Source: an uncultured Gammaproteobacteria bacterium
Lineage (GTDB): Bacteria; Patescibacteriota; Patescibacteriia; UBA2196; CAYSSY01
Assembly: GCA_964434055.1 (NCBI GenBank)
Contig: CAYSSY010000003.1
Coordinates: 10,372 to 74,371 of the forward strand
Reading direction: 5' to 3'
DNA: 64,000 nucleotides
Shown here: positions 8,630 to 36,317 of the stretch, one piece after another
How positions within the stretch are numbered: position 1 is the first letter of the stretch
Layout of the letters: every line of letters begins with the position of its first letter
Notes under the pieces: generated by a model
What the model saw: the letters and a program-made list of their open reading frames with translations, nothing else
What the model was told of the DNA's origin: nothing
The model's database searches: none
Program-made: the position numbers and the translations under genes

Positions 8630-8639
8630 AAATGGTTGA

Positions 8640-8712
8640 GTTTTAGTAAGTGGTAGCCAGTAGTAAGTAACAGGGAGTAAGTAGTCGGTAAGCTATAGTC
8701 GTAAGTCATAAG
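8640..8712. repeat. Short tandem-ish array of (A)GTAAGT motifs in the paralog 7 / paralog 6 spacer
   Basis: The motif GTAAG(T) occurs at 8646, 8663, 8677, 8688 and 8701, spaced 11-17 nt apart, within the 91-nt gap between the paralog 7 stop and the paralog 6 start. Confidence 0.4.
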
Positions 8713-8720
8713 TCAGCCGA

Positions 8721-9596: not shown

Positions 9597-9654
9597 ATAT
9601 ATAAATCTACCGCGAAATACCTTAAAAATCAATAATAAAAATTTATTTTGTCAT

Positions 9655-10653: not shown

Positions 10654-11217
10654 TTATTCAGTCTGAAGATCAACTTGTGGGGCATTTTCTGTGCCAGCTT
10701 GGGCCTCAAAATACACCTTAGTCCCATAACCTAATTGCTTGGCGATCAAGTTGGTGGGAAATCTTTTAATGGCCACATTAAAACTATTAACAACATCATT
10801 ATAGCGCTTACGTTCAACACTGATTCTATTTTCCGTACCTTCAAGCTGAGCCATCAGTGTTTGCACATTCTCCGCTGATTTTAACTGCGGATAATTTTCC
10901 ATGACAGCCAAGAGTCTCGCTAAGGAACCTTCAACAGCAGTAGCGGCTTCAGCTTTCGCATCAGCACTGGCGGCACCGGCATAACGCGTGCGGGCTTCTG
11001 CCAATTCGGTAAATATTTTTTGTTCCTGAGTCATGACGCCTTTTACTGATTCCACTAAATTAGGAATCAGATCAAAACGGCGCTGATATTGCGTTTCGAC
11101 TTGTGCCCACTGATTATTAACTGCTTCGTTGGCAGTCACCAGCCGATTATAGGTCAGCCAATAGTAGCCGCCGATAATCACCAAGATCGCCACCAAGATA
11201 ATTAGAGCTTTCTTCAT
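10654..11217 (-). CDS. lemA: LemA family protein
   Basis: An N-terminal TM helix is followed by YNRLV...QWAQVETQYQRRFDLIPNLVESVKG...EARTRYAGA, the LemA signature. The ORF abuts the TPM-domain gene, the classic LemA-TPM pair. Confidence 0.85.
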   Translation of the reverse strand: MKKALIILVAILVIIGGYYWLTYNRLVTANEAVNNQWAQVETQYQRRFDLIPNLVESVKGVMTQEQKIFTELAEARTRYAGAASADAKAEAATAVEGSLARLLAVMENYPQLKSAENVQTLMAQLEGTENRISVERKRYNDVVNSFNVAIKRFPTNLIAKQLGYGTKVYFEAQAGTENAPQVDLQTE

Positions 11218-17729: not shown

Positions 17730-17788
17730 AAACTAATTTATCATTAAAAACGAGGACTATTTAACTGTCTTGACACCTTAAACGTTAT

Positions 17789-18784: not shown

Positions 18785-19214
18785 TAAACTGGAATAATTT
18801 TTTTCCTCACAATCTTGGATTACTGTCAATTTTTATATAAAATAAAAAACTAGTAGTATCATATCCCTACTAGTATTTATGTAGAGCTCTGTCACTCCTG
18901 TGTTAAATCCTTTAATGCTTTTTCTAGCCTTAAAACAGTAACCTTATCTTTAGCGGAATGAGGTGATTCTTTAAATTTTTTTGTAACCTTTTCAGGATGT
19001 TTGTTACAAATATGACCAAAGAGCCATTCTCAAACACCGCTCTCTTTGTTACAATAAGGACACTTCTCACCCATTTTTGATTACTCCTCTATTAAAGTAC
19101 TTAATTATATTGATAATACTCTTCATATAATATGTCAATATTATTTGGCAATTTGACAAACCTTTAAACCATATTCTAAAATTAAGTCACGAGTAAATTT
19201 TTTACAAATTTATA

Positions 19215-19350
19215 CACAGGCCTTTCCGGTGGTCCATCGGAAAAAATAATCAGGGAAAGCGGTGTAAATCCGCTGCTGTGCCGCAACTGTAACTCTGCCC
19301 ATATTTTGTGGATAAATATGTGAAGAGAAGCCAGATGACTGATACTGTGT
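19215..19350 (+). promoter_or_regulatory. cobalamin (B12) riboswitch aptamer
   Basis: The segment AATCAGGGAAAGCGGTGTAAATCCGCTGCTGTGCCGCAACTGTAA matches the conserved cobalamin-riboswitch core (GGGAA..GGTG.AA.TCC...GC.G..CCGC.ACTGTAA). A downstream GAAGCCAGATGACTG segment is also present. It lies in the 5' leader of the 19437 gene. Confidence 0.65.
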
Positions 19351-19404
19351 TTTATTAACTAATAACTCTTCGAGCTAAAGAGTTTAGGTTTTTATGCCTA
19401 ATCA

Positions 19405-19436
19405 TCCGCCCTCAAAAGAGTGGGATTTTTTATTTT
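19405..19436 (+). terminator. Putative riboswitch expression-platform terminator hairpin
   Basis: The hairpin CCCTCAAAAGAGTGGG (bulged stem) is followed by ATTTTTTATTTT and ends just before the ATG at 19437. Confidence 0.4.
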
Positions 19437-21218
19437 ATGAAAAAAACTCTAAATTTTTTCCTAATTGGTATTATTCTGACAATGCCACTTTTTTCATCAG
19501 CAATCAATGTCACGACTGAATCAATAACTTATTTAAAAAGTAAAACCAATAATCCTTGGGTAACGATGGCTTTAGTGGCGGCGGGTGAAAATACTGGTAA
19601 TGTTGATTATCTAAAAAATGTCACTGAAACTGAAGCTGTCAAATTAGCAGCACCTATTTTAGCAATAACAGCACTTGGGCAAGATCCGAGATCTTTTGGT
19701 GCACAAAATTTAGTCTCTCAGTTAAAAAAAACATATAAACAAAATCAACTGGGTGATACTGCCACCATGAATGATGATATTTTTGGTTTGTTGGCCCTTG
19801 TGTCAGCTGGCGAAAATAACGAGGACTTGGTCGTGAATGGTACTAAAAATTTTATTCTTAATCACCAAAACAGCGATGGCGGCTGGGGCTTTCAAGTTAA
19901 TGGTTCATCAGATACCAACATGACTGCCATGGCAATTATGGCCTTAATAAAAGCTGGTGAAGATGGTGAGAAGATTAATCAGGCTGTAAATTATTTAAAA
20001 AATTCACAAAATAATGACGGTGGTTTTCCATATGATAAATCAAGCACTTGGAGTTCAGTCTCCGATGCTTCTTCCGATGCTTGGGTAATTTCCGCTATCT
20101 ATTGTCTGGGACAAGATCCATATAATTGGACGAAAAACGGAAAAAACCCAGTTGATCATTTAAAATCATTACTAGCTAATGAAGGCTACTTTCATTATCA
20201 AACAGGAAGTAATGAAGACTCATTTTCTACCATCACTACTGCTTATGCCGTGATTGCTTTGTCTGGAAAATATTATCCAATTAACACAATTAACGTTAGA
20301 CTAAAAGAATATGCTTTCCGTATTGAAGGCTCTAGTGAGACTATTTGTAGCGGTCAAATCGGGGCAGTAACTGCGCTTGATATTGTAAAAAATGCTCAAG
20401 AAATCTGCAGCTTCAATTATCTAATTGAAAATATGAGTTTCGGACCTTATTTAAAAAAAATAAACACTGATGAAGCACAGGGTTTAAAAGGCTGGCTTTA
20501 TTTAGTCAACTATAATTCACCCACAGTTGGCGCCGCTGATTATCAACTTCAAGAAAATGACGAGGTAATCTGGTTCTATGGTGAGTGGACTGATCAACCG
20601 CTTAAGATAAGCGTTGATAAAACCGAGGTTGGACAAAATGAAAATATCACAGCCACGGTCAACTTTTTTAGTCAATCTGGTTGGCAACCACTAACCGGCG
20701 CTCAAATCTTAGATAAAGTTACAGATAGTAGTGGTCAAACCATTCTATCGTTCACTGATGGCTATTATCGATTATCAGCCAAAAAAAATGGCTTCATAAG
20801 AAGTAATCAAATTAATTTAAAAGTCGGCAATCCTCAAGAAAATTCAGTCTCATTAAAAGTTGAGATTGAAAAGGGCCAAGTTGCTGGCGATGAAACCAAT
20901 GGTTCAGGAACAATTTCATTCTCTGTTGAACCAAATGAGTTAAACTTTGGTAAGTTAAAAAACGGCGCTAACAGTTCCCAAAAACTAAAAATAACTAACA
21001 ATGGCAGCACCGCCATGCATATTGAAGCTAAGGTGGACGGTGATGAACTTTTTCGCAATAACTTACAGCTTAATGATAAGTTCTGGCTTTACTTTTCTGA
21101 AAATTTAGAACAAAATCAAAATCGCGATATTACCGCACAATTGTCAGTTCCAGCAAGCTATGGTGGTAGTGCTGGTTCCAAGCAAGGTGCTCTCATTTTT
21201 TGGGCGATGGCACAGTAA
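19437..21218 (+). CDS. Secreted cobalamin-binding-like protein: alpha/alpha-toroid (prenyltransferase/squalene-oxidase-like 'DGGWG' repeats) + DUF4430-like beta domain + C-terminal Ig-like region (transcobalamin/intrinsic-factor-like architecture)
   Basis: It has a signal peptide and repeats NSDGGWGFQVNGSSDTNMTAMAIMALIKAG and NNDGGFPYDKSS...SSDAWVISAIYCLG. A segment GWLYLVNYNSPTVGAADYQLQENDEVIWFYGEW matches the DUF4430 pattern (W.YxVNG...Y.L..GD.I.W.Y). It is under the B12 riboswitch. Confidence 0.55.
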   Translation: MKKTLNFFLIGIILTMPLFSSAINVTTESITYLKSKTNNPWVTMALVAAGENTGNVDYLKNVTETEAVKLAAPILAITALGQDPRSFGAQNLVSQLKKTYKQNQLGDTATMNDDIFGLLALVSAGENNEDLVVNGTKNFILNHQNSDGGWGFQVNGSSDTNMTAMAIMALIKAGEDGEKINQAVNYLKNSQNNDGGFPYDKSSTWSSVSDASSDAWVISAIYCLGQDPYNWTKNGKNPVDHLKSLLANEGYFHYQTGSNEDSFSTITTAYAVIALSGKYYPINTINVRLKEYAFRIEGSSETICSGQIGAVTALDIVKNAQEICSFNYLIENMSFGPYLKKINTDEAQGLKGWLYLVNYNSPTVGAADYQLQENDEVIWFYGEWTDQPLKISVDKTEVGQNENITATVNFFSQSGWQPLTGAQILDKVTDSSGQTILSFTDGYYRLSAKKNGFIRSNQINLKVGNPQENSVSLKVEIEKGQVAGDETNGSGTISFSVEPNELNFGKLKNGANSSQKLKITNNGSTAMHIEAKVDGDELFRNNLQLNDKFWLYFSENLEQNQNRDITAQLSVPASYGGSAGSKQGALIFWAMAQ

Positions 21219-21352
21219 AAAAATGCGAATATAAAAATAAAAAACTATGAGTTTTCATTTTTAACTGTCGTGGCTCTGTCATGACCTCGCAGACTGCGGG
21301 ATAACAGTGAAATGGTCATTCTAATATTTAATTTTTCACTTTAAATTTATTT

Positions 21353-21883
21353 ATGTCTTCATGTAAATATTTAACTAGATACTTGATATTTCTGCTGCTC
21401 CTATTACCATTGTTGACTAAGGCTGCCGGCTTAGCCGTTACGCCAGCAAAAGTCAATTTAGAGATGACTACTGGCCAAGAAAAAAATGTCTCACTCGAAG
21501 TTGAAAACACCAGCAGTAATGTTAATCTCTATGACGTCTGGCTAGACGACGAATTTAATTTTATTAAAATTACCCCTCAAAGTTTTACCTTAGAAAGTGG
21601 GGAAAAGAAAAAGATAAACCTTATTATTACCGGAGAAAGAGAACTGAGTTTAGCCACAACAATTTCGATTATTGGCCGACCGCTTGGCATTCAAGAATTC
21701 AATTTAACGCCGGGCATAAAAATTCCGCTTAGTATAAGCATCGCCCCCCAACAAAAAAAACTAATAAATGAGTATCTTATCTATACTATCTTAAGTTTAA
21801 TGGTCCTGACTGTTGTTGTGTGGCTCATAATACTGACACGTCTTAAAACAAAGAAAAAAACGAAAAACTTATTTTTAAATTAA
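21353..21883 (+). CDS. hypothetical exported protein with a C-terminal TM anchor
   Basis: It is 176 aa with a signal peptide, a beta-rich middle region and a C-terminal TM helix plus a basic tail (LSLMVLTVVVWLIILTRLKTKKKTKN). It lies downstream of the B12-binding-like gene on the same strand. Confidence 0.45.
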   Translation: MSSCKYLTRYLIFLLLLLPLLTKAAGLAVTPAKVNLEMTTGQEKNVSLEVENTSSNVNLYDVWLDDEFNFIKITPQSFTLESGEKKKINLIITGERELSLATTISIIGRPLGIQEFNLTPGIKIPLSISIAPQQKKLINEYLIYTILSLMVLTVVVWLIILTRLKTKKKTKNLFLN

Positions 21884-21885
21884 AT

Positions 21886-21920
21886 TAAAAAAAACAGCCT
21901 TTAAAAAAGGCTGTTTTAAA
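21886..21920. terminator. Bidirectional rho-independent terminator between the 21353 gene (+) and murI (-)
   Basis: The hairpin AAACAGCC-TTTAAAAAA-GGCTGTTT is flanked by an A-run on one side and a T-run on the other. Confidence 0.5.
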
Positions 21921-21929
21921 AATATAAAC

Positions 21930-22727
21930 TTATTCCAATACTACTTTCTCAAGTTTAATTCTATTACTAAGAAATTTTTCTGCGATTTGCTGAAAATGTG
22001 GGGTAATATCAGTCACAAAATAAGCAGCATTACTGGCTTTATCTTTTAAAATCTCTTCTTTTAATGCCACATGTGAATCTAAATATTTTTTAACTTCTTG
22101 AGCGACGCTCTGAGCAGAATCAATTATCCTAACTCTCTTACCAATTGCTTTTTGAATTATTTTTTTAATCAATGGATAATGAGTACAACCGAGAATTAGG
22201 GTATCAACATTTTTAGTTTTCAGACCTTGTAAATATTTTTTTACAATTCTTTTAGTTTCAGCCTCGTCTAACCAACCTTCTTCAACAAGTGACACTAAAA
22301 GTGGACAAGCCTGAGAAGTAACTACCATCTGAGTGCCACCAAGCTCTTTTATTTTTTTTTCATAAATTCCACTGTTAATGGTGGCCCGTGTGCCAATAAC
22401 TGCAATTCTTTTTTTAGTACTGACCTTAAGTGCCTCTTTAACTGCCGGGGTCACAACTTCAAAAATCGGCAATGAAAAATTTTTTCTTAAAACTTCCATG
22501 GCATTGGTTGAAGCTGTATTGCAGGCAACAATGATAATCTGTGCCCCTTTTTCCATTAAAAATTTAGTGTCGCCTAAAGCATAATTCTCCACCATCTCCC
22601 GACTTTTATTACCATAAGGTGTCCGGGCTGTATCGCCTAAATATAAAAAAGGCAAATCCGGCATCTGTCTGATCACTTCTTTAACAACGGTCAAACCGCC
22701 TAAACCTGAATCAAAAATACCTAGCAT
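21930..22727 (-). CDS. murI: glutamate racemase
   Basis: It carries GIFDSGLGGLTV and the two catalytic Cys regions (VACNTAS, GCTHYP). Confidence 0.9.
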   Translation of the reverse strand: MLGIFDSGLGGLTVVKEVIRQMPDLPFLYLGDTARTPYGNKSREMVENYALGDTKFLMEKGAQIIIVACNTASTNAMEVLRKNFSLPIFEVVTPAVKEALKVSTKKRIAVIGTRATINSGIYEKKIKELGGTQMVVTSQACPLLVSLVEEGWLDEAETKRIVKKYLQGLKTKNVDTLILGCTHYPLIKKIIQKAIGKRVRIIDSAQSVAQEVKKYLDSHVALKEEILKDKASNAAYFVTDITPHFQQIAEKFLSNRIKLEKVVLE

Positions 22728-22736
22728 ATTGGCTTA

Positions 22737-23522
22737 TTATTTTAATAGTTTAATTAACTGATTATGAATTCTACCATTACTAACTAATAAATGTCTAGCA
22801 TTAAAACCGGGATACTGGCCACCTAAATCAGTAATCTTTGCCCCGGCTTCTTGAGCAATAACCAATCCGGCGCCTAAGTCTTTTATCTCTTGCCAACCAG
22901 TTAAATCAAAATAAGCATCGAAATGACCTTGGGCTAAATAGCATAAACTCAAAGAGCCTAAACCCATAACACGGAAACGATAAAAATGTTCCATAACTCT
23001 TTTCATACGCTCATTGGTTATTTTGTGCTCTTTCTTATTTAATAAACTTAGACGTGTTATATCTAAATAGATGATTGAATCGCTTAATTTACTAATTGAA
23101 GAAACCTTAATTTTTTTGTGGTTATAATAAGCACCGTGACCTTTTTCTGCCCACCATGAATCCTTGGTCCCTGGCTGATAAACAACTCCCAAAAGCGGTT
23201 TTTCCTGGTACCACAGACCAATAGCTGTCGTAAAAAATTTAATACCAGACTGAAAATATTTACTACCATCAATAGCATCAATCACCCAAGTATAGGGTGA
23301 CTGTTGATTTATATTTTTGGTTTCTTCTCTAATAATATTGTGTCCGGGACACTTTTTTAATATTTTTTCGCTGACACTTTTTTCTATAGCAAAATCTATT
23401 TCAGAAGCAATATCTCTTTTCACTGTCTTACTGACAAAATGATGCTTCTTATTGAGGGTAGTTAAAACTTGGTCACCGCTCTCGCGAGCTAGATTAAGAG
23501 TAAATTTTAAAAGTGGCGACAT
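22737..23522 (-). CDS. inositol monophosphatase family protein (SuhB/CysQ-like)
   Basis: It carries the IMPase motifs, including WVIDAIDGSKYF (WxIDPIDGT-like) and downstream metal-binding residues. Confidence 0.8.
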   Translation of the reverse strand: MSPLLKFTLNLARESGDQVLTTLNKKHHFVSKTVKRDIASEIDFAIEKSVSEKILKKCPGHNIIREETKNINQQSPYTWVIDAIDGSKYFQSGIKFFTTAIGLWYQEKPLLGVVYQPGTKDSWWAEKGHGAYYNHKKIKVSSISKLSDSIIYLDITRLSLLNKKEHKITNERMKRVMEHFYRFRVMGLGSLSLCYLAQGHFDAYFDLTGWQEIKDLGAGLVIAQEAGAKITDLGGQYPGFNARHLLVSNGRIHNQLIKLLK

Positions 23523-23526
23523 ATTT

Positions 23527-24960
23527 TTAATTTAAGACATCTAAATTAACACATAACTGATCCTGCCAGATCATCTCTGGATAGCTCCTCAGAATATCTC
23601 TCGTGTACAACCTCCTTTTTTCATAAGTTACCTCATCTTTAGCCTCAAATTTGACGGTAATATAGGGACCATTTTGGGAATAGCGAAAAACCATCATACC
23701 GTCTTTGAAATCAGCGCGCACACCGTCATCACCAGGTATAATTGAATCATCAGTAATCTCAGCGTCCTGAAAATCATTTTTAAACCTAACAGCTAAATTT
23801 TTAATAACATCCTTTTTCTTGTCATCAGGACAACCAATTTTTATCTCTGGTGACGAAATGTATCTGGGAAATTTATCAACTAAATTGGCTAGGGAAATCT
23901 TTTTTTCTGATAAATATTCTAAAACTCTCAGTGCAGCGTAACAGCCATCATCATGACCATAAGCATTATCAGCGAAAAAGAAATGACCGGAGAGTTCACC
24001 GCCAAAAGCCGCTTTTTCTGTAGCAATTTTACTTTTAATAAATGAATGACCAGTACGCCAAATTATTGGTTGACCACCCTCCTGTAAAATAACCTCCCGG
24101 ACCACCTGGGAACATAAAGTATTATAAATAATTTTCGATTTTGGAAATCTTTCCAAAATTTCTTTGGCAAAAATTGCCACCAAAACATCGTTCCATAAAA
24201 TTCTTCCTTTTGAATCAACAACCCCTAAGCGATCACCATCGCCGTCAAAGGCAAAACCTAAATCAGCCCCCTCTTTTAGAACTTCTTCGCCTAAACTCTT
24301 CATATATTTTTCATCGGTTGGATCAGGCGTGCCTTTAGGGAAACTACCATCAACCTCTAAATTTTTGCCAATGACCTGACACTTGGCTTTCTTAAAAATA
24401 TCAACCACAAATAGACCAGTGGTCCCATGCCGGCCATCAATTACAATTTTATATTTTTTCTTAATAGCTACCCTTTTGAGTAAATCATGGATATAGTCTT
24501 TTTTGATGTCTTTCTTAACTAACTTTCCAATTTTTTTACTGATAAAAAAATTCTCCTGTTCAACATAAGATCTAATTTCCTGAACGTCATCCTCCATGGT
24601 TGTCTGCGAATAACCAACACCTAATTTGAAGCCATTAAAATTATAGGGATTATGCGAAGCGGTCATAATCGCCCCACCATTAGTCTGAAAACGATATTGA
24701 CCATAATACATCATTTGAGTCATGATCATCCCTAAATCAATAATATCGACACCGGTTGAGAGTAAACCCCTGATAAAAGCCGGTAAATATTCTTCGCCAC
24801 TTAAACGGCAGTCACGTCCAACAACCGCCTGTTTAATTTTGCGACGCTTTAAAAAAGTACCGAAAGCTTTGCCTATGACTTCCATTTTTTCGACGTCAAA
24901 ATCTTTACCCGCCTCACCGCGGATATCATAATTTCTAAAAACAAAAGGATTTATCTGCAT
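23527..24960 (-). CDS. phosphohexomutase (phosphoglucomutase/phosphomannomutase family)
   Basis: It carries the active-site Ser loop MTASHNPYNFNGFK, the metal-binding loop FAFDGDGDR and the sugar-binding region GGELSGH. Confidence 0.85.
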   Translation of the reverse strand: MQINPFVFRNYDIRGEAGKDFDVEKMEVIGKAFGTFLKRRKIKQAVVGRDCRLSGEEYLPAFIRGLLSTGVDIIDLGMIMTQMMYYGQYRFQTNGGAIMTASHNPYNFNGFKLGVGYSQTTMEDDVQEIRSYVEQENFFISKKIGKLVKKDIKKDYIHDLLKRVAIKKKYKIVIDGRHGTTGLFVVDIFKKAKCQVIGKNLEVDGSFPKGTPDPTDEKYMKSLGEEVLKEGADLGFAFDGDGDRLGVVDSKGRILWNDVLVAIFAKEILERFPKSKIIYNTLCSQVVREVILQEGGQPIIWRTGHSFIKSKIATEKAAFGGELSGHFFFADNAYGHDDGCYAALRVLEYLSEKKISLANLVDKFPRYISSPEIKIGCPDDKKKDVIKNLAVRFKNDFQDAEITDDSIIPGDDGVRADFKDGMMVFRYSQNGPYITVKFEAKDEVTYEKRRLYTRDILRSYPEMIWQDQLCVNLDVLN

Positions 24961-24964
24961 AAAA

Positions 24965-26398
24965 TTAATTTTTATTTAACTTATAAAATAACTCTTTACC
25001 TTTTTGTAAAATTTCCCCAGCTGTTTTTTTATCAGCAGCACCAGCAATAATTCTAAAAAGTCCAACCTCGGTCTGCGAACCGCGGAAAAAAAGCCAAGTA
25101 TTCTGATTATAGTAAATTTTTAAACCACCAGAACAACCTCTAAAATATTTTAGCTGTGGCTCATATTTTCTAAAATAATGAACAATCTTATCAATTATCT
25201 GTTGATTGTCTCCTATTCGACCAATGACTCCAGTTCGCACTTCATAAAATTCAGGATACTCAGCAACTAGTTCGGTTAATGATTTTTTTTCTTCAGCCAT
25301 TAAAGAAATAATCAGCAATAGTGACAGTAAACCATCGCGACAAGTTGTACCACGGACAATAACTCCACCATTACTACCTTCGCCGCCAATCGGACTTTTT
25401 AAATCTCTCATCTTTTCAACCACGTTTGTCTCTCCAACATCAACTTCAACAATTTTAGCATGATATTTTTTGGCTATCATTTTAACAACTGGTAGTGTTG
25501 GTAAATTGGAAACGACTGTTGATCTTTTATCGTGACAATGTCTTAAATAACTATCAACACATAAAGCTAAACTGTAATGACCGCAGACAATATGGCCACG
25601 CTTTCTTGAAAAATTATTTGTTGGTAAAACAAATTCTGCTCGATCAGCATCACAATCAAAACCTACTCCCAAGTTTGCTTGGCAACGATCGACATCTTCA
25701 ACTAGTTTAATTAAAGTTTCGGAATTCGGTTCTATCTTTCTTTTAAAAATCCCAATTTTTGTATTAATGCCAATATACTTAAGTTCTAATTTCTTAAATA
25801 ATGGCGCCACAATTACACTGGCCGCTCCGCCATTAGGATCAACAACAATTTTGAAACCTGATTTTTTAATTAGACGCAGTCGCCTTAAGCCAATAATTTT
25901 AAAAACATCAGTCAAATATTTCTTTCTGATGTCCTTTTCTTTATTAATCACATTACCTTTTTTAACTAAAAAAATCGTCTCACCCGAAGAATTGTGAGCT
26001 GACTTAATAACCAAAGCTGCTTCACGTTCAGTTAAAATTCCCCCGTTTTTTTGCAATAACTTAAAACCATTATAATGCGGCTCATTATGAGAAGCAGTAA
26101 TAATAATACCACCTTGAGCTTTATAAACACGCACAGCTAATTGTACCATTGGCGTTGTTGCTATACCAACATCAACAATATCAATTCCAAGACTAATCAA
26201 CTCAGTCTTTAAAATTTTGTTTACTAATTCACCTGATGGCCGAGAATCGCGTCCGACAACTATTTTAACGTGCTGATTTTTTTTTCTCAAATATTCGGCA
26301 TAAGCCCGGGCATAGCCAACTATTATTTGCCGATTAAAACTTTGACCAAAGATGCCGCGCACCCCCGACAACGATTCAACTAAAAAATCTTGTGACAT
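24965..26398 (-). CDS. phosphohexomutase (GlmM/ManB-type paralog)
   Basis: It carries the ITASHNEPHYNGFK active-site loop and GVGFDCDADR metal loop. It is the second member of a tandem pair. Confidence 0.8.
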   Translation of the reverse strand: MSQDFLVESLSGVRGIFGQSFNRQIIVGYARAYAEYLRKKNQHVKIVVGRDSRPSGELVNKILKTELISLGIDIVDVGIATTPMVQLAVRVYKAQGGIIITASHNEPHYNGFKLLQKNGGILTEREAALVIKSAHNSSGETIFLVKKGNVINKEKDIRKKYLTDVFKIIGLRRLRLIKKSGFKIVVDPNGGAASVIVAPLFKKLELKYIGINTKIGIFKRKIEPNSETLIKLVEDVDRCQANLGVGFDCDADRAEFVLPTNNFSRKRGHIVCGHYSLALCVDSYLRHCHDKRSTVVSNLPTLPVVKMIAKKYHAKIVEVDVGETNVVEKMRDLKSPIGGEGSNGGVIVRGTTCRDGLLSLLLIISLMAEEKKSLTELVAEYPEFYEVRTGVIGRIGDNQQIIDKIVHYFRKYEPQLKYFRGCSGGLKIYYNQNTWLFFRGSQTEVGLFRIIAGAADKKTAGEILQKGKELFYKLNKN

Positions 26399-26418
26399 AT
26401 ATTACTCAGTTTTTAAAA

Positions 26419-27591
26419 TTATTTCCACTTGGCTAATTCTTCCTTATTGAAAACTACTAAAGCACCTAAAGCCCACCAAGTTAAAACAAGTGATATTAAC
26501 CAACCAATAAACGGCAGTGAGGTAATAATAACTAACACCAAAACACCAATGATCATTGACACCATCATTTGTGGATCTTTCCGACCAAGTGCTTTCAATA
26601 AAGCATAGCCCAAAGAAATACCGACAAAAACCTTGGCCAAATAAAGACTAATTAAGTAAGTAGCAATCATAATTAAAGCCACAGGCAGACCAATTAGCGT
26701 GAAAATCAAGGCTAAAGCTATAACAGGCACAACGATAAAGAAAAGTAAACCTCTGCCAATATTGGCCCAAATGTTGGTAATCATCTGATCACCAACTTTT
26801 CCAACAACCTTAGGTATAAAAGAAACGAGGATCAAACCGACAACCAATAGAGCAAAAAAATTAAAAACCCGGCTCATAACCCAAGCTGTAGTAATTACTT
26901 TTTTTACTTTTTCTTTATTAATAACTGGTTTAATTTGAGGTAAATTGTGAGTAACATTACCTTTAATAACCGCTCCATCTTTAATGTCAGCCTGGTCTTG
27001 GGCTGTATAAGTCAAATCACTGGCTAGCTCGGCATTAGGATAAACAACCAGCTTACCACTTTCTTGTGCATTGCCTAAATAAGCGTTAACTGGTCCACTA
27101 AACTCTCCTGCTAAAATCAGACTACCACCACCAACTAAAACTTCCTTCCCAATCTTACCCCTTAAATCTAGAGCACCGGCACCAGCAGTCACTGATCCAG
27201 TAATTTCACTTTTTTCCTCTAAAGTTAAAGTGCCAGCTCCAGCTAAAATATTCTTGCCGACCAACCCGCTGATGTCTAAAGTGCTTCCAACAGCTCTAAT
27301 ATTTCCTTCAACTTCACCACTGACTTTGACACTACTGCCAGCAGCAAAAACATCGCCAGTCACCTTGCCGCTAATAATTACCGAGGCACCGACCACAAAA
27401 ACATCACCGTCAATTGTACCAGCCACTTCAACTGTTGCCCCCGCCTTGTATAAATTACCAGTTAAAACCTCCTCTTTCCCAATATAAATCACCTCCTGCA
27501 TTTTAGGACCTGCTGCCTGAGTAAAAAAAATCGGAGCTAATATCACTAGACAAATTATTACGAAGAATAAAAATATTTTCTTGGCCTTCAT
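26419..27591 (-). CDS. membrane protein with N-terminal beta-helical (bactofilin-like) repeat domain and C-terminal multi-pass TM domain
   Basis: A signal/TM segment is followed by about 180 aa of repetitive G-x-V-x-G pseudo-repeats (GDVFVVGASVIISGKVTGDVFAAGSSVKVSGEVEGNIRAVGSTLDISGLVGKNI...). Four or five predicted TM helices follow. Confidence 0.5.
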   Translation of the reverse strand: MKAKKIFLFFVIICLVILAPIFFTQAAGPKMQEVIYIGKEEVLTGNLYKAGATVEVAGTIDGDVFVVGASVIISGKVTGDVFAAGSSVKVSGEVEGNIRAVGSTLDISGLVGKNILAGAGTLTLEEKSEITGSVTAGAGALDLRGKIGKEVLVGGGSLILAGEFSGPVNAYLGNAQESGKLVVYPNAELASDLTYTAQDQADIKDGAVIKGNVTHNLPQIKPVINKEKVKKVITTAWVMSRVFNFFALLVVGLILVSFIPKVVGKVGDQMITNIWANIGRGLLFFIVVPVIALALIFTLIGLPVALIMIATYLISLYLAKVFVGISLGYALLKALGRKDPQMMVSMIIGVLVLVIITSLPFIGWLISLVLTWWALGALVVFNKEELAKWK

Positions 27592-27663
27592 ATATTTTTT
27601 TAATATTAATTTTTATAGTTTTTCTTTTCTTAATAATATCACTAAACATGCATCTGGGGCAAA

Positions 27664-27700
27664 TAAAAAAACTCGGCAGTTTATAATAAACTCCCGAGTT
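27664..27700 (-). terminator. rho-independent terminator downstream of the T9SS-CTD gene
   Basis: On the minus strand the hairpin ACTCGGGAGTTTATTATAAACTGCCGAGT is followed by TTTTTTTATTT. Confidence 0.5.
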
Positions 27701-27722
27701 AGAATTCATGAATACAAAAGAA

Positions 27723-28433
27723 TTACTTTGTGAATACCAACCGTTTGGTGTGCACTAGGCCATTGGCCACTAACGAATAAATATATGTTCCGCTGGCAAC
27801 CTGCAAGCCTGCACTATTGGTGCCATCCCAGAGGGTGGTGTGTTTACCTGGTGCCAACCGGTTATTGATCAATGTCCTGATCTCACGACCAAGCAGATCA
27901 TAGATAACCAATCGGACATAGCCGGACATTGGAATAGAAAACTCAATCGTCGTTACGGGATTAAAAGGATTGGGATAATTCTGTGCCAGAACATAGCCGT
28001 TGGGTTGAGAGTGTTCTTTTTCGATCCCAGTCGGCAAAGAACCCTTTGAAATCAGATAGTTTGGCCCAATGTATTCCGTGCCGTTATAAAAAACCCATCT
28101 CAGTCGGTACCAAATGTTGTTGTATAGAAACTTATCGACGTTATAACGACACCCATAATTGGTTGTCGCTGGATAATTACCGCGACCGTCTTTTCGTATA
28201 ACTCCTAATTGCCAAGTCATGCCGCAATCAAAACTTACGTCCAAATAGACGTAAAGGGTTTCGATCTCGTAATAGGTAACCCAACGTACTGAATCACTAG
28301 TTGGCGTGCAATAAGCACTCACCAACTCAAATCTCCCCATATTGACCTCACCAGCCATAACCTGGTTTGCTGCGCCGGATACCATACTGATAGCCACTAA
28401 AGCTGCCAAAACCAATAACCAGTTCTGTCTCAT
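27723..28433 (-). CDS. secreted protein with a T9SS/Por-type C-terminal sorting domain (Por_Secre_tail-like); GC-rich, probably horizontally acquired
   Basis: The C-terminal ~80 aa (QNYPNPFNPVTTIEFSIPMSGYVRLVIYDLLGREIRTLINNRLAPGKHTTLWDGTNSAGLQVASGTYIYSLVANGLVHTKRLVFTK) match the T9SS type-A CTD consensus almost motif-for-motif. It has a signal peptide and a strong GGAGGA Shine-Dalgarno site. GC in 60-nt windows is 42-55%, against about 33% for its neighbours. Confidence 0.7.
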   Translation of the reverse strand: MRQNWLLVLAALVAISMVSGAANQVMAGEVNMGRFELVSAYCTPTSDSVRWVTYYEIETLYVYLDVSFDCGMTWQLGVIRKDGRGNYPATTNYGCRYNVDKFLYNNIWYRLRWVFYNGTEYIGPNYLISKGSLPTGIEKEHSQPNGYVLAQNYPNPFNPVTTIEFSIPMSGYVRLVIYDLLGREIRTLINNRLAPGKHTTLWDGTNSAGLQVASGTYIYSLVANGLVHTKRLVFTK

Positions 28434-28464
28434 GGTTTACTTCCTCCATTAATGAAATGTGGGT

Positions 28465-28491
28465 TTTAAAAAATCCCTTTTTAAAAGGGCA
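28465..28491 (-). terminator. rho-independent terminator (for the 28568..28951 gene) immediately upstream of the T9SS-CTD gene
   Basis: On the minus strand the hairpin GCCCTTTT-AAAAAGGGC is followed by ATTTTTT. Confidence 0.45.
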
Positions 28492-28567
28492 GGATATGAT
28501 TGATAAATTTTAAGAAGTCTAACATTTAAAAATAATCCTGTCAAGAGTAAAATAGCCTTTTATCAAC

Positions 28568-28951
28568 TTATTTATTGGTACGTCTTTTAGACTCAGCCTG
28601 GCGCACTCTTTTTTCATCAAGACCAAAGTGATGAGCAATCTCATGCCAGACGGTATCTTTTACTAATTCTTTTATAGCTTCTGCACTTTTAGCAACCATT
28701 AAAATTGAATTCTTAAAAATGGTTATTTTATCAGGTAACACGGCTGAGTAATTAATACCCCGCATATTCTGTGGTACGCCCTCATACAATCCAAAAAGTA
28801 GTTGATCTGATCTTAAATTAACTTTTTGCTTTTGCAAGGCACTGGGTTCAGCTTCAACTATGATACTCACATTATTCAACTTCTTTAAAAATCTTTCTGG
28901 AATAGCAGCCACGCCTTGTTGCACTAATTGTTCAAATAATTCATCGTCCAT
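28568..28951 (-). CDS. zincin-like metallopeptidase family protein (DUF1025/Zincin_1-like)
   Basis: It is 127 aa. The HExxH-type motif lies in VWHEIAHHFGLDE near the C-terminus, as in the small Zincin_1 family. Confidence 0.65.
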   Translation of the reverse strand: MDDELFEQLVQQGVAAIPERFLKKLNNVSIIVEAEPSALQKQKVNLRSDQLLFGLYEGVPQNMRGINYSAVLPDKITIFKNSILMVAKSAEAIKELVKDTVWHEIAHHFGLDEKRVRQAESKRRTNK

Positions 28952-28955
28952 AATA

Positions 28956-29504
28956 TTATTTTTTATTTATCTTGCTAAAAAATAAACAGATACTTAATAT
29001 CAGATTGATTATCAGTGACAGAAACACACCGCTTAATAAGCCGGTGCGTGTTACTGAATCACCACCTGACAAAAAGCGCAAATGAGGAAAAAAAGTATTT
29101 AACCATGGCGCTTCTGGCGGATAAAAAGCGAAAAAGGAATTACTGGGCAGCCAAGACCTAACTTGATTAATATTTAACACTGCAATCCAAAACCAATAAC
29201 TTAAACTTTCTAAACCAAATAGTCCAAAAATAACTAAAAACAGCCAATAAATTTTGGATAACTTAAATAATCTTAAAAACACAAAACCGCTGCCAAGAAA
29301 AACTAAAAAAATAAGACTAGGATAAATTAGGTTAGCATCTTTAAAAATCCAAGGCAGTCTTTCCCAAGTATAATAGGCCATCAAGTTGCCTTTAATAAAA
29401 GCATCAATCAAACCAACAAAATAAACATTAACAATAGAGATAAAAAATATTTTTAGATATTCCATAATTATTGACATGTATACTTCATTATTATAAAATT
29501 TCAT
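28956..29504 (-). CDS. hypothetical integral membrane protein
   Basis: It is 182 aa with 4-5 hydrophobic helices. No motif is recognised. Confidence 0.45.
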   Translation of the reverse strand: MKFYNNEVYMSIIMEYLKIFFISIVNVYFVGLIDAFIKGNLMAYYTWERLPWIFKDANLIYPSLIFLVFLGSGFVFLRLFKLSKIYWLFLVIFGLFGLESLSYWFWIAVLNINQVRSWLPSNSFFAFYPPEAPWLNTFFPHLRFLSGGDSVTRTGLLSGVFLSLIINLILSICLFFSKINKK

Positions 29505-29544
29505 ATTAAATTAGTTTTCACAATTTGTTATTTGGAGGCACAAA

Positions 29545-29979
29545 ATGTTACAAAAAACTTGGCTCGAACTAAAATCGCCACTACCTGAAAAATATTTTGA
29601 AAGGTTTGCTAGTTTGTACACTCGATTAACTGGCCAACCTCTCCACATACCTGTTGAGCAAATTACGGCTGCAGCTGTTTGGTCAACTTTGCTGCAAATT
29701 AACCACCACCTGTTGGAAAAAAGCAGCGGACGAATAGTTATGGAACAAAGTTATTTTAAGGTTCCGACATACTTCAGACCGGCTGAATTATTGAGTGCCT
29801 TAAAGAACTTATTTGAGGCCTACAATAAAAATATCGATAAGACATTTGTCTTTAATTGGCTTCATATAAGAGACTGTGCGATCTGTGCGACCAGTTTCAC
29901 TTTATTTGTCTCCGGTTTTTTAAAAACAATAGTTAACAAAAAATCTTTTGAAAGAAATATCATCGAACTTATGAATTAA
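29545..29979 (+). CDS. hypothetical protein
   Basis: It is 144 aa. The ORF is supported only by its length and codon usage. Confidence 0.4.
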   Translation: MLQKTWLELKSPLPEKYFERFASLYTRLTGQPLHIPVEQITAAAVWSTLLQINHHLLEKSSGRIVMEQSYFKVPTYFRPAELLSALKNLFEAYNKNIDKTFVFNWLHIRDCAICATSFTLFVSGFLKTIVNKKSFERNIIELMN

Positions 29980-30005
29980 CTCTGGGTACACTACACCTGG
30001 GGTTT

Positions 30006-30737
30006 TTATTTTTTCTGGGCAATGGTTAACAAAGTCCAAGCCTGATCAGAACTAGCTTCTACTCCTTTCTGAGTAAACTTGTTAACTAAAACCGAAAAAT
30101 CACTTTTATAAAGTAATACCTCCAGTTCCTCAGGGCTAAAAAAATGACAATAGCGATAAATTATTTTTTGCCGATGTTTCCAAGGAAAATAAATTTCTTT
30201 AAATTGAAAAATTAAACTTAAAGGCATGTGTCGCAACCGAAAAAATAAATTAAAACGACTATGCCAAAATTTTTTCTGTCTAAGGTTCCAGTTAGTCATT
30301 AGAATGTACCCGCCGGGCTTCAGAACCCGTGCGACTTCCTTAAAAATCTTAAGCTGTAAGTCTTGTGATGGTATGTGATGCATAACAGCAATCATAAATA
30401 CAACATTAAACGAGCTATCTGTGAAAGTCGCTAAATTACAAATGTCATCTTTAATAAAATTAACGTTTGTTAAAGCACTAAATTTTTCTTGAGCCTTAGT
30501 AATTAAAGTGCTACAATTATCAACGCCCGTATATTTTATTTTTTTACTTTTTAAAACCTCAAATAAACGACCATTACCACAACCTAAATCAAGAACACTG
30601 TCACCATCTTTAACATATTTATTTAGTATTGTAAATTCAGCCCAAGGGTACTGTCGGGTATTATTAAACTCATCGGCTAAAAAATTATAATCTGCTGTTG
30701 TTTTAGATAGCAATTTGTTAATTAATTTTTTATTCAT
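30006..30737 (-). CDS. Trm9/ALKBH8-type tRNA (carboxymethyluridine34-5-O)-methyltransferase-like class I SAM MTase
   Basis: It carries the N-terminal Trm9 signature YNFLADEFNNTRQYPW (compare yeast VYNEIAPHFSQTRYKPW). Motif I is VLDLGCGNG. It also has FMIAVMHHIPS (compare ISIAVVHHWST) and LKPGGYILMTNWNLRQ (compare GGQALIYCWALEQ). It is divergent from and abuts the Elp3 gene. Confidence 0.7.
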   Translation of the reverse strand: MNKKLINKLLSKTTADYNFLADEFNNTRQYPWAEFTILNKYVKDGDSVLDLGCGNGRLFEVLKSKKIKYTGVDNCSTLITKAQEKFSALTNVNFIKDDICNLATFTDSSFNVVFMIAVMHHIPSQDLQLKIFKEVARVLKPGGYILMTNWNLRQKKFWHSRFNLFFRLRHMPLSLIFQFKEIYFPWKHRQKIIYRYCHFFSPEELEVLLYKSDFSVLVNKFTQKGVEASSDQAWTLLTIAQKK

Positions 30738-30738
30738 A

Positions 30739-32463
30739 ATGAAAATATTAAGTCGCGAAATTAAAAATATTATTCTAGCTACACCTCAAAATGAAGCAAA
30801 TTTATTATCTTTAAAAAGAAAGTTTGCTAAAAATTCCGGTCAACTACCATTGAATTCAGAATTGCTTTCAGTATACCGCAACCTTTTAAAAAATAACAAG
30901 ATTAAAACTGATAAAAACCTGGAGAAATTGCTGAAGAAAAAAAACATTCGAACTCTTTCAGGTGTAGCACCAATTTCTGTTTTGGTAAAAAATTTTCCCT
31001 GCCCAGGCAACTGTCTTTACTGCCCGACAGAAAAAGCCATGCCTAAAAGCTATCTCTCTAATGAACCAGCGGTGATGCGCGCTGTTTTATGTGACTTTCA
31101 CCCATTTAAACAGGTAGCACTGCGCCTCAAAGCCTTGCAACAAAATGGTCACTCCACTGATAAATTAGAACTGATTGTCATCGGCGGTACTTGGAATGCT
31201 CTGCCTGAAAAATATCGCTTATGGTTTATGTATAACTGCTTTGCCGCAGCCAACGAACCACAAATAACAATTAACAAGAAGCAAATAATTATTAGCAAAA
31301 ACCTTAAATTAAAAACACTTAACAAAGTGACTTGGAAAGATTTATATCGTGAACAGAAAAAAAACGAGATGGCACAAAACAGAATCATTGGCTTGACCTT
31401 GGAAACACGACCTGATTATATTACATGTTCAAATGCGCTTGAAATGCGGCAACTGGGCTGCACGCGAGTGGAACTTGGGGTACAGCATCTTAATGATAAA
31501 ATTTTAAAATTAAATCGACGCGGCCATGGTGTTGCTGAAACCATAAAAGCAACAAATATTCTACGTTCATTGGGTTTTAAAATAACTTATCATCTAATGC
31601 TTAATTTACCTGGATCAAATCCAGCTCATGATCTTGCGATGTTTAAAAAACTTTTTAAAGACGCCTGTTTTCAGCCAGATCAGATTAAAATTTATCCGTG
31701 TGTCGTTACTAAAAATTCTGATCTTTATAATCTTTGGCAAAAAGGCCAATACCAGCCTTATAATACTGAACAATTAACAAATCTTTTAATTAAAATTAAA
31801 AAAATTGTGCCTGAATATGTCAGAATAATTAGGGTTATTAGGGATATTCCAGAAACTTCAATCATCGCTGGTAATAAAATAACTAATCTAAGAGAAACTG
31901 TCTTACAAAATATGCTTTTAAATAATAAACCGTGTCGCTGCATTAGATGCCGAGAAGTAGGACATCAACAGAAAACTCAAATGCCCAATGTCAAATGTAA
32001 AAAAATAAAATTATGCACTAATAAATATGAAGCCGGATCCGGAACAGAATATTTTTTAAATTATGAATCAGTTGATAAAAAAGTACTCTATGCCTTTCTG
32101 CGACTACACCTGCCAACTTCTAAAAATCAGTTACTGGTTACTGATTGTCGGTTACCAGCTGCTGGTTACTGGCTACTGACCACCCCGATAATTCGCGAAC
32201 TCCACACTTACGGCGAACTGGTACCGATTGATCAGCAAGACAAGACAGCCAGTCAACACCGAGGCATGGGTAAAAAACTAATTTTGGAAGCAGAAAAAAT
32301 TGCTTGTCAAAATAATTTTAGAGAAATTGCTGTCATTGCCGGGATCGGTGTCAGAAACTATTATCGCAAACTTGGCTATACTTTATTAAAAGACACTTAT
32401 TTGGTGAAAAAATTGCGGAAAAAAAATAATGGTGGTATAGTTGAAATGAAAAAAAATATATGA
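30739..32463 (+). CDS. elp3: Elongator Elp3-like tRNA uridine(34) carboxymethyl synthase (radical SAM + GNAT)
   Basis: The Cys cluster FPCPGNCLYCP is followed by SYLSNEPAVMRA...LQQNGHSTDKLELIVIGGTWNA, which aligns closely with eukaryotic/archaeal Elp3 (GNICVYCP...SYTGYEPTSMRA...GHSIDKVEYVLMGGTF). A C-terminal GNAT/KAT domain is present (HRGMGKKLILEAE). The ORF-track start at 30715 is a TTG codon. The first ATG is at 30739, 1 nt from the Trm9-like ATG on the other strand. Confidence 0.85.
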   Translation: MKILSREIKNIILATPQNEANLLSLKRKFAKNSGQLPLNSELLSVYRNLLKNNKIKTDKNLEKLLKKKNIRTLSGVAPISVLVKNFPCPGNCLYCPTEKAMPKSYLSNEPAVMRAVLCDFHPFKQVALRLKALQQNGHSTDKLELIVIGGTWNALPEKYRLWFMYNCFAAANEPQITINKKQIIISKNLKLKTLNKVTWKDLYREQKKNEMAQNRIIGLTLETRPDYITCSNALEMRQLGCTRVELGVQHLNDKILKLNRRGHGVAETIKATNILRSLGFKITYHLMLNLPGSNPAHDLAMFKKLFKDACFQPDQIKIYPCVVTKNSDLYNLWQKGQYQPYNTEQLTNLLIKIKKIVPEYVRIIRVIRDIPETSIIAGNKITNLRETVLQNMLLNNKPCRCIRCREVGHQQKTQMPNVKCKKIKLCTNKYEAGSGTEYFLNYESVDKKVLYAFLRLHLPTSKNQLLVTDCRLPAAGYWLLTTPIIRELHTYGELVPIDQQDKTASQHRGMGKKLILEAEKIACQNNFREIAVIAGIGVRNYYRKLGYTLLKDTYLVKKLRKKNNGGIVEMKKNI

Positions 32464-34833: not shown

Positions 34834-35676
34834 ATGATTAAAAAAAGTCAAGTCATCGACGGTCAAAAAATTGCCATTAAAGAACTGGCAGCATTAAAGA
34901 GCCAAATCCAAAAAAAACGAATTAAACCAGGACTGGCAGTGATTTTAGTCGGCCGTGATCCAGCCTCACAGCTTTATATAAAGCTCAAAGAAAATGCGGC
35001 CAAAAAAGTTGGCATTAATTTTTCCAAATACTTGCTGCCAGAAATGACAACTGAAAAAAAAATAATTAATTTAATAAAAAGTTTGAATAAGCAATCGGCT
35101 GTACATGGTATTATAGTTCAGCTGCCTCTTCCAAAACACTTGAATCCTGATAAAATTATTAACACAATAGACTACAGAAAAGATGCAGACGGCTTCCATA
35201 AAAAAAATTTGACCTCGTTAAAAAGTAAAACTTACTTTATTAAACCAGTTATGCTTGAAGTTGTATCAAACTTACTAAAATGGACAAAACGGAATTTTAA
35301 TAATCAACTGGCATGTTTAGTAGCTAACTCTAATAAATTCTTCGAACCATTTCAGTACTTCTTGCCATCAGCCTTTGGGCTCAGAATAACCACGGCCAAG
35401 GTTGGCCACCGCGATTTAAAAAATAAAGCCAGGCGTGCTGATGTTTTAATCGTAGCTCTGGGTAAACCGCATTTTATCAAAGCTGATTATGTTAAAAAAA
35501 ACGCTATAGTGATTGATATTGGTATTACTAAAAAGGGCACAAAAACCCTGGGGGATGTTGATTTTAATAAAGTTAAAAAAAAGGCTGGCTTTATTACGCC
35601 AGTGCCTGGAGGGGTTGGCCCTTTGACAGTCGCTTACCTTTTAAAAAACGTCTTTTTACTCGCCCATAAAAAATAG
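34834..35676 (+). CDS. folD: bifunctional methylenetetrahydrofolate dehydrogenase/cyclohydrolase
   Basis: The region GLAVILVGRDPASQLYIKLKENAAKKVGINF...GIIVQLPLPKHL is the FolD signature. It lies next to glyA, consistent with one-carbon metabolism. Confidence 0.9.
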   Translation: MIKKSQVIDGQKIAIKELAALKSQIQKKRIKPGLAVILVGRDPASQLYIKLKENAAKKVGINFSKYLLPEMTTEKKIINLIKSLNKQSAVHGIIVQLPLPKHLNPDKIINTIDYRKDADGFHKKNLTSLKSKTYFIKPVMLEVVSNLLKWTKRNFNNQLACLVANSNKFFEPFQYFLPSAFGLRITTAKVGHRDLKNKARRADVLIVALGKPHFIKADYVKKNAIVIDIGITKKGTKTLGDVDFNKVKKKAGFITPVPGGVGPLTVAYLLKNVFLLAHKK

Positions 35677-35696
35677 TCCAAAATTTGGACTATTTT

Positions 35697-36002
35697 TTAT
35701 TCAACCGAATTCTTGACCCATTTTAAATAATCTTGCGCTACTTTTTTTGCTTCATAAGCACAGATACATGGCACTTGATAAGAATGATATTTTTTCACAA
35801 GTAATTCTATATTCTTGATATTTTTCTTAGTTGTCTTGGCAAAAAGGATGACTTCTTTTGATTGTTTAATTTTACCTTGCCAAGAATAAAGAGAAGCACA
35901 AGGAAAAAAATTGGCGCAGGCAATTAGTTTATTTTCCAACAATAGGCGTGTAATTTTGACAGCCTCTTTTTTATTTAAAAAAGTCAGATAAATTAAATAC
36001 AT
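35697..36002 (-). CDS. cutA: divalent-cation tolerance protein CutA family
   Basis: It is 101 aa. The sequence LIACANFFPCASLYSWQGKI...EVILFAKT...YHSYQVPCI matches the CutA1 pattern. Confidence 0.7.
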   Translation of the reverse strand: MYLIYLTFLNKKEAVKITRLLLENKLIACANFFPCASLYSWQGKIKQSKEVILFAKTTKKNIKNIELLVKKYHSYQVPCICAYEAKKVAQDYLKWVKNSVE

Positions 36003-36062
36003 AAATTAAATAAAACTGGCATAGTTTTGAATTATACCTATTATTAAACAGTCACACATTTT

Positions 36063-36317
36063 TTAAGCCACTAGATATGCCAGATCGCCTTCTTTAACTG
36101 GCTGATCGACTTTCATGCCAACCAATTCACCAAGCTGCGCCGATAAAACATTCTGATGCTCAACTTGCATTGAGCTAACAGTTTGCTCAAAGTCCCGACC
36201 GTGTCCGACAAAATGAAGTTTATCGCCTTGTTTTAAACCACTGGCTAATTCTAAAATAGCGACACTCAAATGATCATAATAATGAGTGACTTTGCCAATA
36301 ATTTTTTCTCCAGCCAT
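36063..36317 (-). CDS. hypothetical small beta-rich protein (possibly EF-Tu domain-2-like barrel)
   Basis: It is 84 aa. The sequence GKVTHYYDHLSVAILELASGLKQGDKLHFVG is reminiscent of standalone translation-factor domain-2 barrels, but the assignment is weak. Confidence 0.35.
   Translation of the reverse strand: MAGEKIIGKVTHYYDHLSVAILELASGLKQGDKLHFVGHGRDFEQTVSSMQVEHQNVLSAQLGELVGMKVDQPVKEGDLAYLVA

Follow-up and report, generated by a model that had tools for sequence, protein, structure and literature searches.

A type IX secretion sorting domain on a predicted secreted protein of a Kuenenbacteria-like Patescibacterium

The 64,000-nucleotide stretch analysed here (the window; positions 10,372 to 74,371 of contig CAYSSY010000003.1, assembly GCA_964434055.1) contains a minus-strand gene for a 236-residue protein, the target of this analysis, that combines a predicted signal peptide, an orphan beta-rich domain and a C-terminal sorting domain (CTD) of type A of type IX secretion systems (T9SS). 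The T9SS CTD is taken to mark a secretion system of the outer membrane that only the Fibrobacteres-Chlorobi-Bacteroidetes (FCB) group possesses. The CTD described here is well supported and non-artefactual, and it is encoded in the genome of a monoderm Patescibacterium, as judged from the surrounding genes. Two more CTDs were found in related genomes, one of them in a gene that is native to its genome. As a whole, the explanation that we consider somewhat more probable than improbable is that the gene encodes a Sec-exported protein of a Kuenenbacteria-like Patescibacterium, in which the CTD has been kept as an immunoglobulin-like (Ig-like) module, and that the orphan domain and the CTD were acquired together by horizontal transfer.

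The gene is the only open reading frame (ORF) within 27592-28567, and its translation includes the motif string YPNPFNPVTTIEFSIPMSGYVRLVIYDLLGREIRTLINNRLAPGKHTTLWDGTNSAGLQVASGTYIYSLVANGLVHTKRL, in which an earlier note on this DNA had recognized a T9SS type A sorting domain. The profile TIGR04183 bears out this recognition, with a score of 32.8 bits against the curated cutoff of 23 (E = 4.9e-8) over residues 153-233 and model positions 2-70 of 72. The other profile that the note had named as a check, Pfam PF18962, scores 20.6 bits, under its gathering score of 27, and is listed as 'weak' in precomputed tables. The Pfam family FlgD_ig passes, with 33 bits for a gathering score of 27. Among 5.8 billion proteins searched, 1699 match the target at E <= 1e-3. 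The top named matches are T9SS CTD proteins of Calditrichaeota, Ignavibacteria, KSB1, Zixibacteria, GN15, Marinimicrobia, Chlorobi and Bacteroidetes, and the named FCB matches share 45-56% identity across the last ~40% of the query (49% over 110 residues for one Calditrichaeota protein). Overall, the target CTD is 45-60% identical to FCB-group CTDs. Alignment of 32 sequences showed that the columns N152-Y-P-N-P-F-N-P159, T161, G215 and Y217 are invariant. The CTD reaches the last residue of the protein, which starts with a predicted signal peptide. In the AlphaFold model, residues 161-236 have predicted local distance difference test (pLDDT) values of 92-98, and Foldseek comparisons of the modelled CTD gave as top matches PorU (6za2), PorZ (5m11), the RemA CTD (8gl6_D and 8gl8_D), the mirolase CTD (8qb1) and FlgD Ig-like domains. 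The matched RemA structure shows the CTD in its bound state in the T9SS translocon. Both the sequence and the predicted fold make the C-terminus of the protein a true member of the T9SS type A CTD family.

The identity of the host was assessed using the ELP3-like radical SAM gene located 2.3 kb from the target. A genome scan with a three-sequence ELP3 alignment gave the 80 best loci among GTDB species representatives, with identities of 48-65%. Their titles are mostly patescibacterial (Ca. Kuenenbacteria, Falkowbacteria, Buchananbacteria, Uhrbacteria and 'Patescibacteria group'), and a large minority are titled generically or as 'Gammaproteobacteria ... binchicken', apparently by mislabelling. 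Loci L018, L021, L025, L026 and others are titled 'uncultured Gammaproteobacteria bacterium isolate binchicken_...' yet carry a patescibacterial ELP3, and several of the loci with such titles also hold the DUF8173–PGM block; such titles are apparently wrong labels or placeholders. The block Race–PGM–DUF8173–(MTase)–ELP3–(NUDIX)–SHMT–FolD is present in 27 of the 80 loci and in two further relatives. The ELP3 similarity and the synteny of this eight-gene block uphold the patescibacterial host proposed earlier and indicate that the host is a Kuenenbacteria-like Patescibacterium.

Patescibacteria have been described as monoderm (PMC11665869), and the T9SS as specific to the FCB superphylum and working at the outer membrane (PMC12398890, PMC8754138, PMC5562754). 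A functional T9SS cargo would be expected in a diderm host of that superphylum, whereas the host here groups with Patescibacteria. Domain scans covered most ORFs of the 64-kb window and showed ordinary housekeeping genes of the type found in the Candidate Phyla Radiation (CPR), including rpoBC, recA, ftsK, ruvA, uvrC and the genes of RNase J, a Mur ligase and FemAB. None of the scanned ORFs encodes a component of the T9SS core (PorK/L/M/N, SprA/Sov, PorV, PorU etc.). Within the window, the statement of the earlier note that the sorting signal lacks cognate machinery thus agrees with the scans.

The N-terminal part of the protein has a different distribution from that of the CTD. The orphan domain spans ~120 residues and, together with the linker, accounts for 55% of the mature protein. 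In an exhaustive comparison by phmmer with 1.84 billion representatives, residues 28-150 showed a sole relative, P0151, at 60% identity (E = 1.7e-40); weak matches to BNR-repeat and FG-GAP_2 repeat proteins cover the stretch of the Asp-box. The Asp-box is perfect in the target (SFDCGMTW), and its counterpart in P0151 is SFDRGASW. The blocks WYRLRWVFYNG and NYLISKGSLPT are also common to the two N-terminal domains. The N-terminal domain is modelled as all-beta at low confidence from a shallow alignment (pLDDT 40-65), so that fold matches carry meaning for the CTD alone.

P0151 is a protein of 644 residues consisting of a signal peptide, FG-GAP repeats, the orphan domain and a CTD that scores 39.4 bits on TIGR04183. 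The target aligns to its residues 434-644 with 51% identity over 213 residues, so that the target is built like the last third of P0151 with a signal peptide in front. The P0151 gene (locus L008, 10001-11935; GCA_964566315.1, CAZMIJ010000007.1) lies beside a gene for an alanyl-tRNA synthetase (AlaRS) that is 81% identical to one from Ca. Kuenenbacteria, and every taxon-specific name among the next AlaRS matches is patescibacterial. Nine contigs, drawn from several samples, carry P0151; four of them were inspected. Its GC content at third codon positions (GC3) of 0.499 is native when compared with 0.472 +/- 0.03 for the other genes of its genome. Judged from its domains and its neighbours, P0151 is a full-size T9SS-cargo-like protein in a monoderm lineage.

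A hidden Markov model built from the CTD matches was run over all ORFs of 91 loci and showed one more case besides the target and P0151. This third CTD (L012, positions 2-247 of PFBP01000058.1, Ca. Kuenenbacteria bacterium CG10_big_fil_rev_8_21_14_0_10_36_11) comprises the last 82 codons of a gene at the start of the contig, scores 47.5 bits on TIGR04183, and has a GC content of 0.455 and a GC3 of 0.512 in a genome of ~31% GC. It is followed on its 3' side by its own terminator and then by rpmH-rnpA-yidD-yidC. The three patescibacterial CTDs have 35-41% mutual identity and each is 50-60% identical to some FCB CTD. By these matches, T9SS-type CTDs recur in the Kuenenbacteria-like CPR lineage. 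Three further CTD matches, which lie on long contigs that bear no taxon name, were considered as patescibacterial cases and set aside: the context of P0003 looks FCB-like (multiple CTD proteins, lspA and PEPCK), that of P0016 is ambiguous and not CPR-looking, and P0050 adjoins beta-oxidation genes and is likewise not CPR-looking.

Comparisons of base composition and codon usage showed that the target gene is foreign to its host genome. Its GC content is 0.446 (200-nt windows, 0.41-0.475), whereas the mean of the 47 other ORFs of the window is 0.353, and its GC3 of 0.477, the highest in the window, compares with 0.299 +/- 0.039. In a recoding test, the target's own amino acids were encoded with the codon frequencies of the window in 5000 simulations. 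The expected GC and GC3 were 0.390 and 0.310, and the observed values lie 5.6 and 5.9 standard deviations higher, a level reached in none of the simulations (0/5000); no other gene of the window is as deviant. Thus the shift is an effect of codon usage rather than of amino-acid composition, and the earlier description of the gene as compositionally foreign survives the test (GC3 z = 5.9). The neighbouring DUF8173 gene reaches a local GC content of 0.44-0.455 in 200-nt windows but has a host-like GC3 of 0.309. High expression was rejected as the cause of the GC3 shift, since the genes of RpoB, RpoC and S6 (rpsF) have a GC3 of only 0.27-0.30. The codon log-likelihood difference per codon is -0.041 for the target, +0.109 +/- 0.040 for the window genes and -0.124 +/- 0.031 for the genes of L008, and the target is the sole gene of the window that fits the L008 codon table better than that of the window. 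As a separate observation, GC is high elsewhere in the window (0.43-0.44) only at a pair of genes for LemA and a TPM-domain protein (9769-11217, minus strand), of which the LemA gene has a GC3 of 0.415 (z = 3.4 under host codon usage). This pair may be a second foreign segment.

The target had been regarded as a single-gene insert. Comparisons of gene order showed instead that it is one of four lineage-specific genes in a 2.4-kb insert (Table 1), together with those of a zincin-like protein (Zincin_1), a membrane protein of 182 residues (hyp182) and a protein of 144 residues (hyp144). The flanking DUF8173 and methyltransferase genes adjoin directly in six species (L026, L032, L034, L042, L050 and L053). 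The 80 related loci were found to hold none of the four insert genes, and the target is missing from the syntenic site in all of them. Among the four genes, only the target has a foreign composition. The closest available relatives share only 59-65% ELP3 identity with the host. No integrase, transposase or phage genes were found around the gene or the insert, the four insert genes gave 0 PHROG matches, and the only flanking repeats are AT-rich chance repeats.

Four further assemblies, three from Logan runs and one from ENA, hold an identical protein with both flanks. These assemblies agree mutually at every site checked and represent one haplotype, which is distinct from that of the window: ~1% of positions differ overall, in discrete patches. 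There are 0 differences over 18269-28536 and 41 over 28537-29260. Because the identical tract spans all of 18269-28536, the 0 nucleotide differences inside the target are uninformative on selection. The gene is stably present at the same site in at least two haplotypes, and since these share the junctions, a chimeric join, against which the earlier note had asked for a check of read pairs, is effectively excluded. The patches of difference (73 in 17769-18268 and 46 in 35269-36268, in addition to the one beside the target) look like recombination tracts. One patch breakpoint lies ~100 nt upstream of the target start codon, inside the intergenic region between the Zincin_1 gene and the target.

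The claimed Shine-Dalgarno site is present at a proper distance from the ATG (Table 1). Of the hairpin terminators that had been proposed on both sides, the downstream one stood up to shuffled controls: its arms are 93% complementary, its folding energy is -19 kcal/mol (z = -3.8), and none of 200 shuffled sequences is as stable. The upstream one, a 6-bp stem of -5.9 kcal/mol (z = -0.9), is at chance level, and it was rejected as a terminator or attenuator because 40 of 200 shuffled controls fold equally well. A promoter-like site upstream is no evidence of function, since the consensus scan gave 6 sites in the region against 4.2 +/- 2.2 expected. The predicted signal peptide has, by eye, a positive n-region, a 14-residue hydrophobic core and V-x-A at -3/-1 and has no lipobox; a helix at residues 4-16 of the structure model agrees with it.

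On the explanation that we favour, the protein would be exported through the Sec pathway by its N-terminal signal peptide alone. Because Patescibacteria are monoderm and no T9SS part was seen in the scanned ORFs, the CTD cannot serve here as a signal for outer-membrane translocation or attachment. On a protein that is secreted or exposed at the surface, it would survive uncleaved as an Ig-like beta-sandwich, most plausibly to bind or to act as a spacer where the cell touches other cells or a substrate. The module formed by the orphan domain and the CTD would have been gained horizontally. Its immediate source is more likely a Patescibacterium (~43-50% GC) than a member of the FCB group, because the sole relative of the module is native in a Kuenenbacteria-like genome. 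CTDs have been seen repeatedly in this lineage, and another CPR bacterium may have been the immediate donor. The CTD itself would ultimately come from the pool of T9SS cargo proteins of the FCB group.

Several points weigh against this explanation. The role as a binding module is a conjecture, made for a protein whose N-terminal fold is modelled at the low confidence given above, and the protein is known here from its gene. The check for T9SS genes covers 64 kb of the genome. A close donor did not emerge, as the best full-length relative (in a CPR genome) is 51% identical and the best CTD-only match 60%. The low mutual identity of the three patescibacterial CTDs, each of which is nearer to FCB CTDs, fits repeated and independent acquisition or swapping of domains better than a single family within the CPR. 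The gene is invariant among the available strains, and the nearest available relatives are distant (ELP3 <= 65%), too far to support the word 'recent'.

Two rival explanations are less supported. The first, which we regard as unlikely, is that an FCB-group bacterium passed a T9SS cargo gene directly and recently to this genome, where the sorting signal is simply stranded. It would account for the unameliorated composition and for the fact that every named CTD homolog comes from the FCB group. The target CTD is also nearer to FCB CTDs (up to 60%) than to the other two patescibacterial CTDs (41% for P0151 and 35%), a ranking that is biased because the comparison set was picked for similarity to the target. 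However, among the 1.84 billion representatives the FCB group offers no homolog of the N-terminal domain and linker, the sole relative of these parts is patescibacterial, and the full module is covered by no FCB protein. In addition, the codon usage also fits a CPR donor of ~43% GC. The nearest-homolog check of the earlier note is divided: the named CTD matches belong to the FCB group, whereas the full-module relative lies in a Kuenenbacteria-like genome. Similarly, its claim of a recent horizontal acquisition from Bacteroidota or the FCB group holds for the horizontal part, given the codon usage and the empty site in 80 loci. The recent date and the FCB donor are not supported: no FCB protein exceeds ~60% identity, and that in the CTD only, and the N-terminal domain has a relative only in the Kuenenbacteria-like Patescibacterium.

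The second rival explanation, to which we give slightly less credence, is that the gene is a passenger with no function: the 3' part of a larger FG-GAP/CTD gene, truncated and landed by chance behind a usable start, neutral and due to be lost. The match to only the last third of P0151, the lack of cognate machinery among the scanned ORFs, the location in a variable insert beside a strain-level recombination patch and the unameliorated composition all fit such a fragment. However, the gene has a complete predicted signal peptide, a strong and correctly spaced Shine-Dalgarno site and a strong terminator of its own, and its reading frame is intact across two complete domains. It is also kept in two haplotypes. 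Furthermore, the N-terminal domain retains 60% identity to P0151, including the Asp-box and the two shared blocks, and this implies long-term constraint on the module.

It is also conceivable, at a very low probability, that CTDs are kept under selection in episymbiotic Patescibacteria because the tag engages the T9SS of a diderm FCB-group host. Equally improbable is the form that this engagement might take, in which the CTD of a protein secreted by the CPR cell or displayed on it would dock on exposed CTD receptors of the host, such as the PorV shuttle or the PorU/PorZ attachment complex, and thereby serve recognition or adhesion by imitating the cargo tag of the host. The presence of the CTD in three Kuenenbacteria-like genomes, with the family motifs and the basic C-terminal strand intact, is compatible with such mimicry and no proof of it. 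In the searched literature, no paper linking T9SS CTDs with Patescibacteria was found, and the CPR, Saccharibacteria and Kuenenbacteria likewise gave nothing relevant.

An assembly or binning artefact, in which a GC-rich gene of another organism was joined in error, would suit the abrupt change of composition at the gene borders and the location of the L012 instance at a contig end but is essentially refuted, since both junctions recur in the three Logan assemblies and the ENA assembly, giving two haplotypes with the window's contig, the composition shift coincides with the start and stop codons between host-like intergenic regions, and both flanks are syntenic with Patescibacteria.

Table 1. 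Positions in the window of the target gene, its parts and signals, and the genes around it
Feature	Position	Strand	Basis
CDS of predicted secreted protein, 236 aa: signal peptide, orphan beta domain, T9SS type A CTD	27723..28433	-	ORF list
Predicted Sec-type signal peptide, residues 1-27: MRQN / WLLVLAALVAISMV / SGAANQVMA, followed by GEV	28353..28433	-	by eye
Orphan beta-rich domain and linker, residues 28-140	28014..28352	-	phmmer, structure model
Asp-box (BNR) S67-F-D-C-G-M-T-W74, consensus SxDxGxTW	28212..28235	-	by eye
T9SS type A C-terminal sorting domain, residues 150-236, Ig-like beta-sandwich	27726..27986	-	TIGR04183, alignment, model
Shine-Dalgarno GGAGGA, 8 nt 5' of ATG	28442..28447	-	sequence
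Intrinsic terminator: 13-bp interrupted stem (27700..27670), then UUUUUUUAUUU	27659..27700	-	inverted repeat and folding
Weak hairpin CCCUUU/AAAGGG and U-run, between Zincin_1 gene and target	28475..28489	-	folding
Promoter-like TTGACA-17-TAGACT with TG extension, 10/12 matches	28516..28544	-	consensus scan only
Lineage-specific 2.4-kb four-gene insert between DUF8173 and methyltransferase genes	27592..30005	.	synteny
Insert gene Zincin_1	28568..28951		
Insert gene hyp182	28956..29504		
Insert gene hyp144	29545..29979		
DUF8173/bactofilin-like membrane protein, conserved-block flank	26419..27591	-	Pfam; synteny, 27/80 loci
Class I methyltransferase, conserved-block flank	30006..30737	-	synteny
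ELP3-like radical SAM gene, divergent from methyltransferase	30715..32463	+	synteny

Three other regions of the window were recorded. Seven head-to-tail paralogs of a class I S-adenosylmethionine-dependent methyltransferase, of ~270-300 residues each, occupy 3567-9632 (minus strand), an expansion that is unusual in a reduced genome. At 23527-26398 (minus strand) lies a tandem pair of PGM/PMM paralogs, each of 477 residues, where the relatives L006 and L007 have a single copy. The gene at 44425-49128 (minus strand) encodes a protein of 1567 residues with CARDB and purple-acid-phosphatase-N-like domains; this protein matches the gliding-motility lipoprotein CglD faintly and is probably a giant protein of the cell surface.

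The presence of this CTD has a practical consequence, in that the annotation 'T9SS type A sorting domain' in metagenome-assembled genomes is no proof of a T9SS or of FCB ancestry. The patescibacterial CTD proteins form a small, tractable set of predicted secreted proteins. If the tag is kept for binding to a host surface or to T9SS receptors of the host, these proteins would give a handle on the identity of the hosts of Kuenenbacteria-like CPR bacteria. If the CTD is merely a stable Ig-like scaffold, it would be an example of the exaptation of a sorting signal after transfer across types of cell envelope.

Among known systems, the target resembles the type A CTD cargo proteins of the FCB group (RgpB and the PorU and PorZ CTDs of P. 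gingivalis, RemA of F. johnsoniae) in its Sec signal peptide followed by an Ig-like beta-sandwich of ~85 residues. It shares with them the motifs NYPNPFNP...T.I and G.Y.Y, the basic C-terminal motif and the same predicted fold, and it is as close to environmental FCB CTDs (45-60% identity) as stated above. However, the host of the target is a monoderm Patescibacterium, in the scanned part of which no T9SS gene was seen, and its passenger domain is an orphan that has no FCB homolog. Because of the monoderm envelope and the absence of T9SS genes among those scanned, recognition by PorV/SprA, cleavage by PorU and attachment to anionic lipopolysaccharide (A-LPS) are not expected within the host cell.

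In comparison with P0151, the only full-module homolog, the target has the same order of orphan domain and CTD and likewise resides in a patescibacterial genome. P0151 differs in carrying ~400 extra N-terminal residues of FG-GAP repeats. It is native to a genome of ~43% GC, where it stands beside the AlaRS gene, whereas the target is foreign in a genome of ~35% GC. The target is also similar to the FlgD Ig-like domain (PF13860), which gives its best Pfam score and whose structures are among the sequence and fold matches. However, the target has neither the N-terminal region of FlgD nor a flagellar context. The FlgD-like match covers residues 171-224 only, whereas the TIGR04183 match over 153-233 includes NYPNPFNP, a motif that is absent from FlgD.

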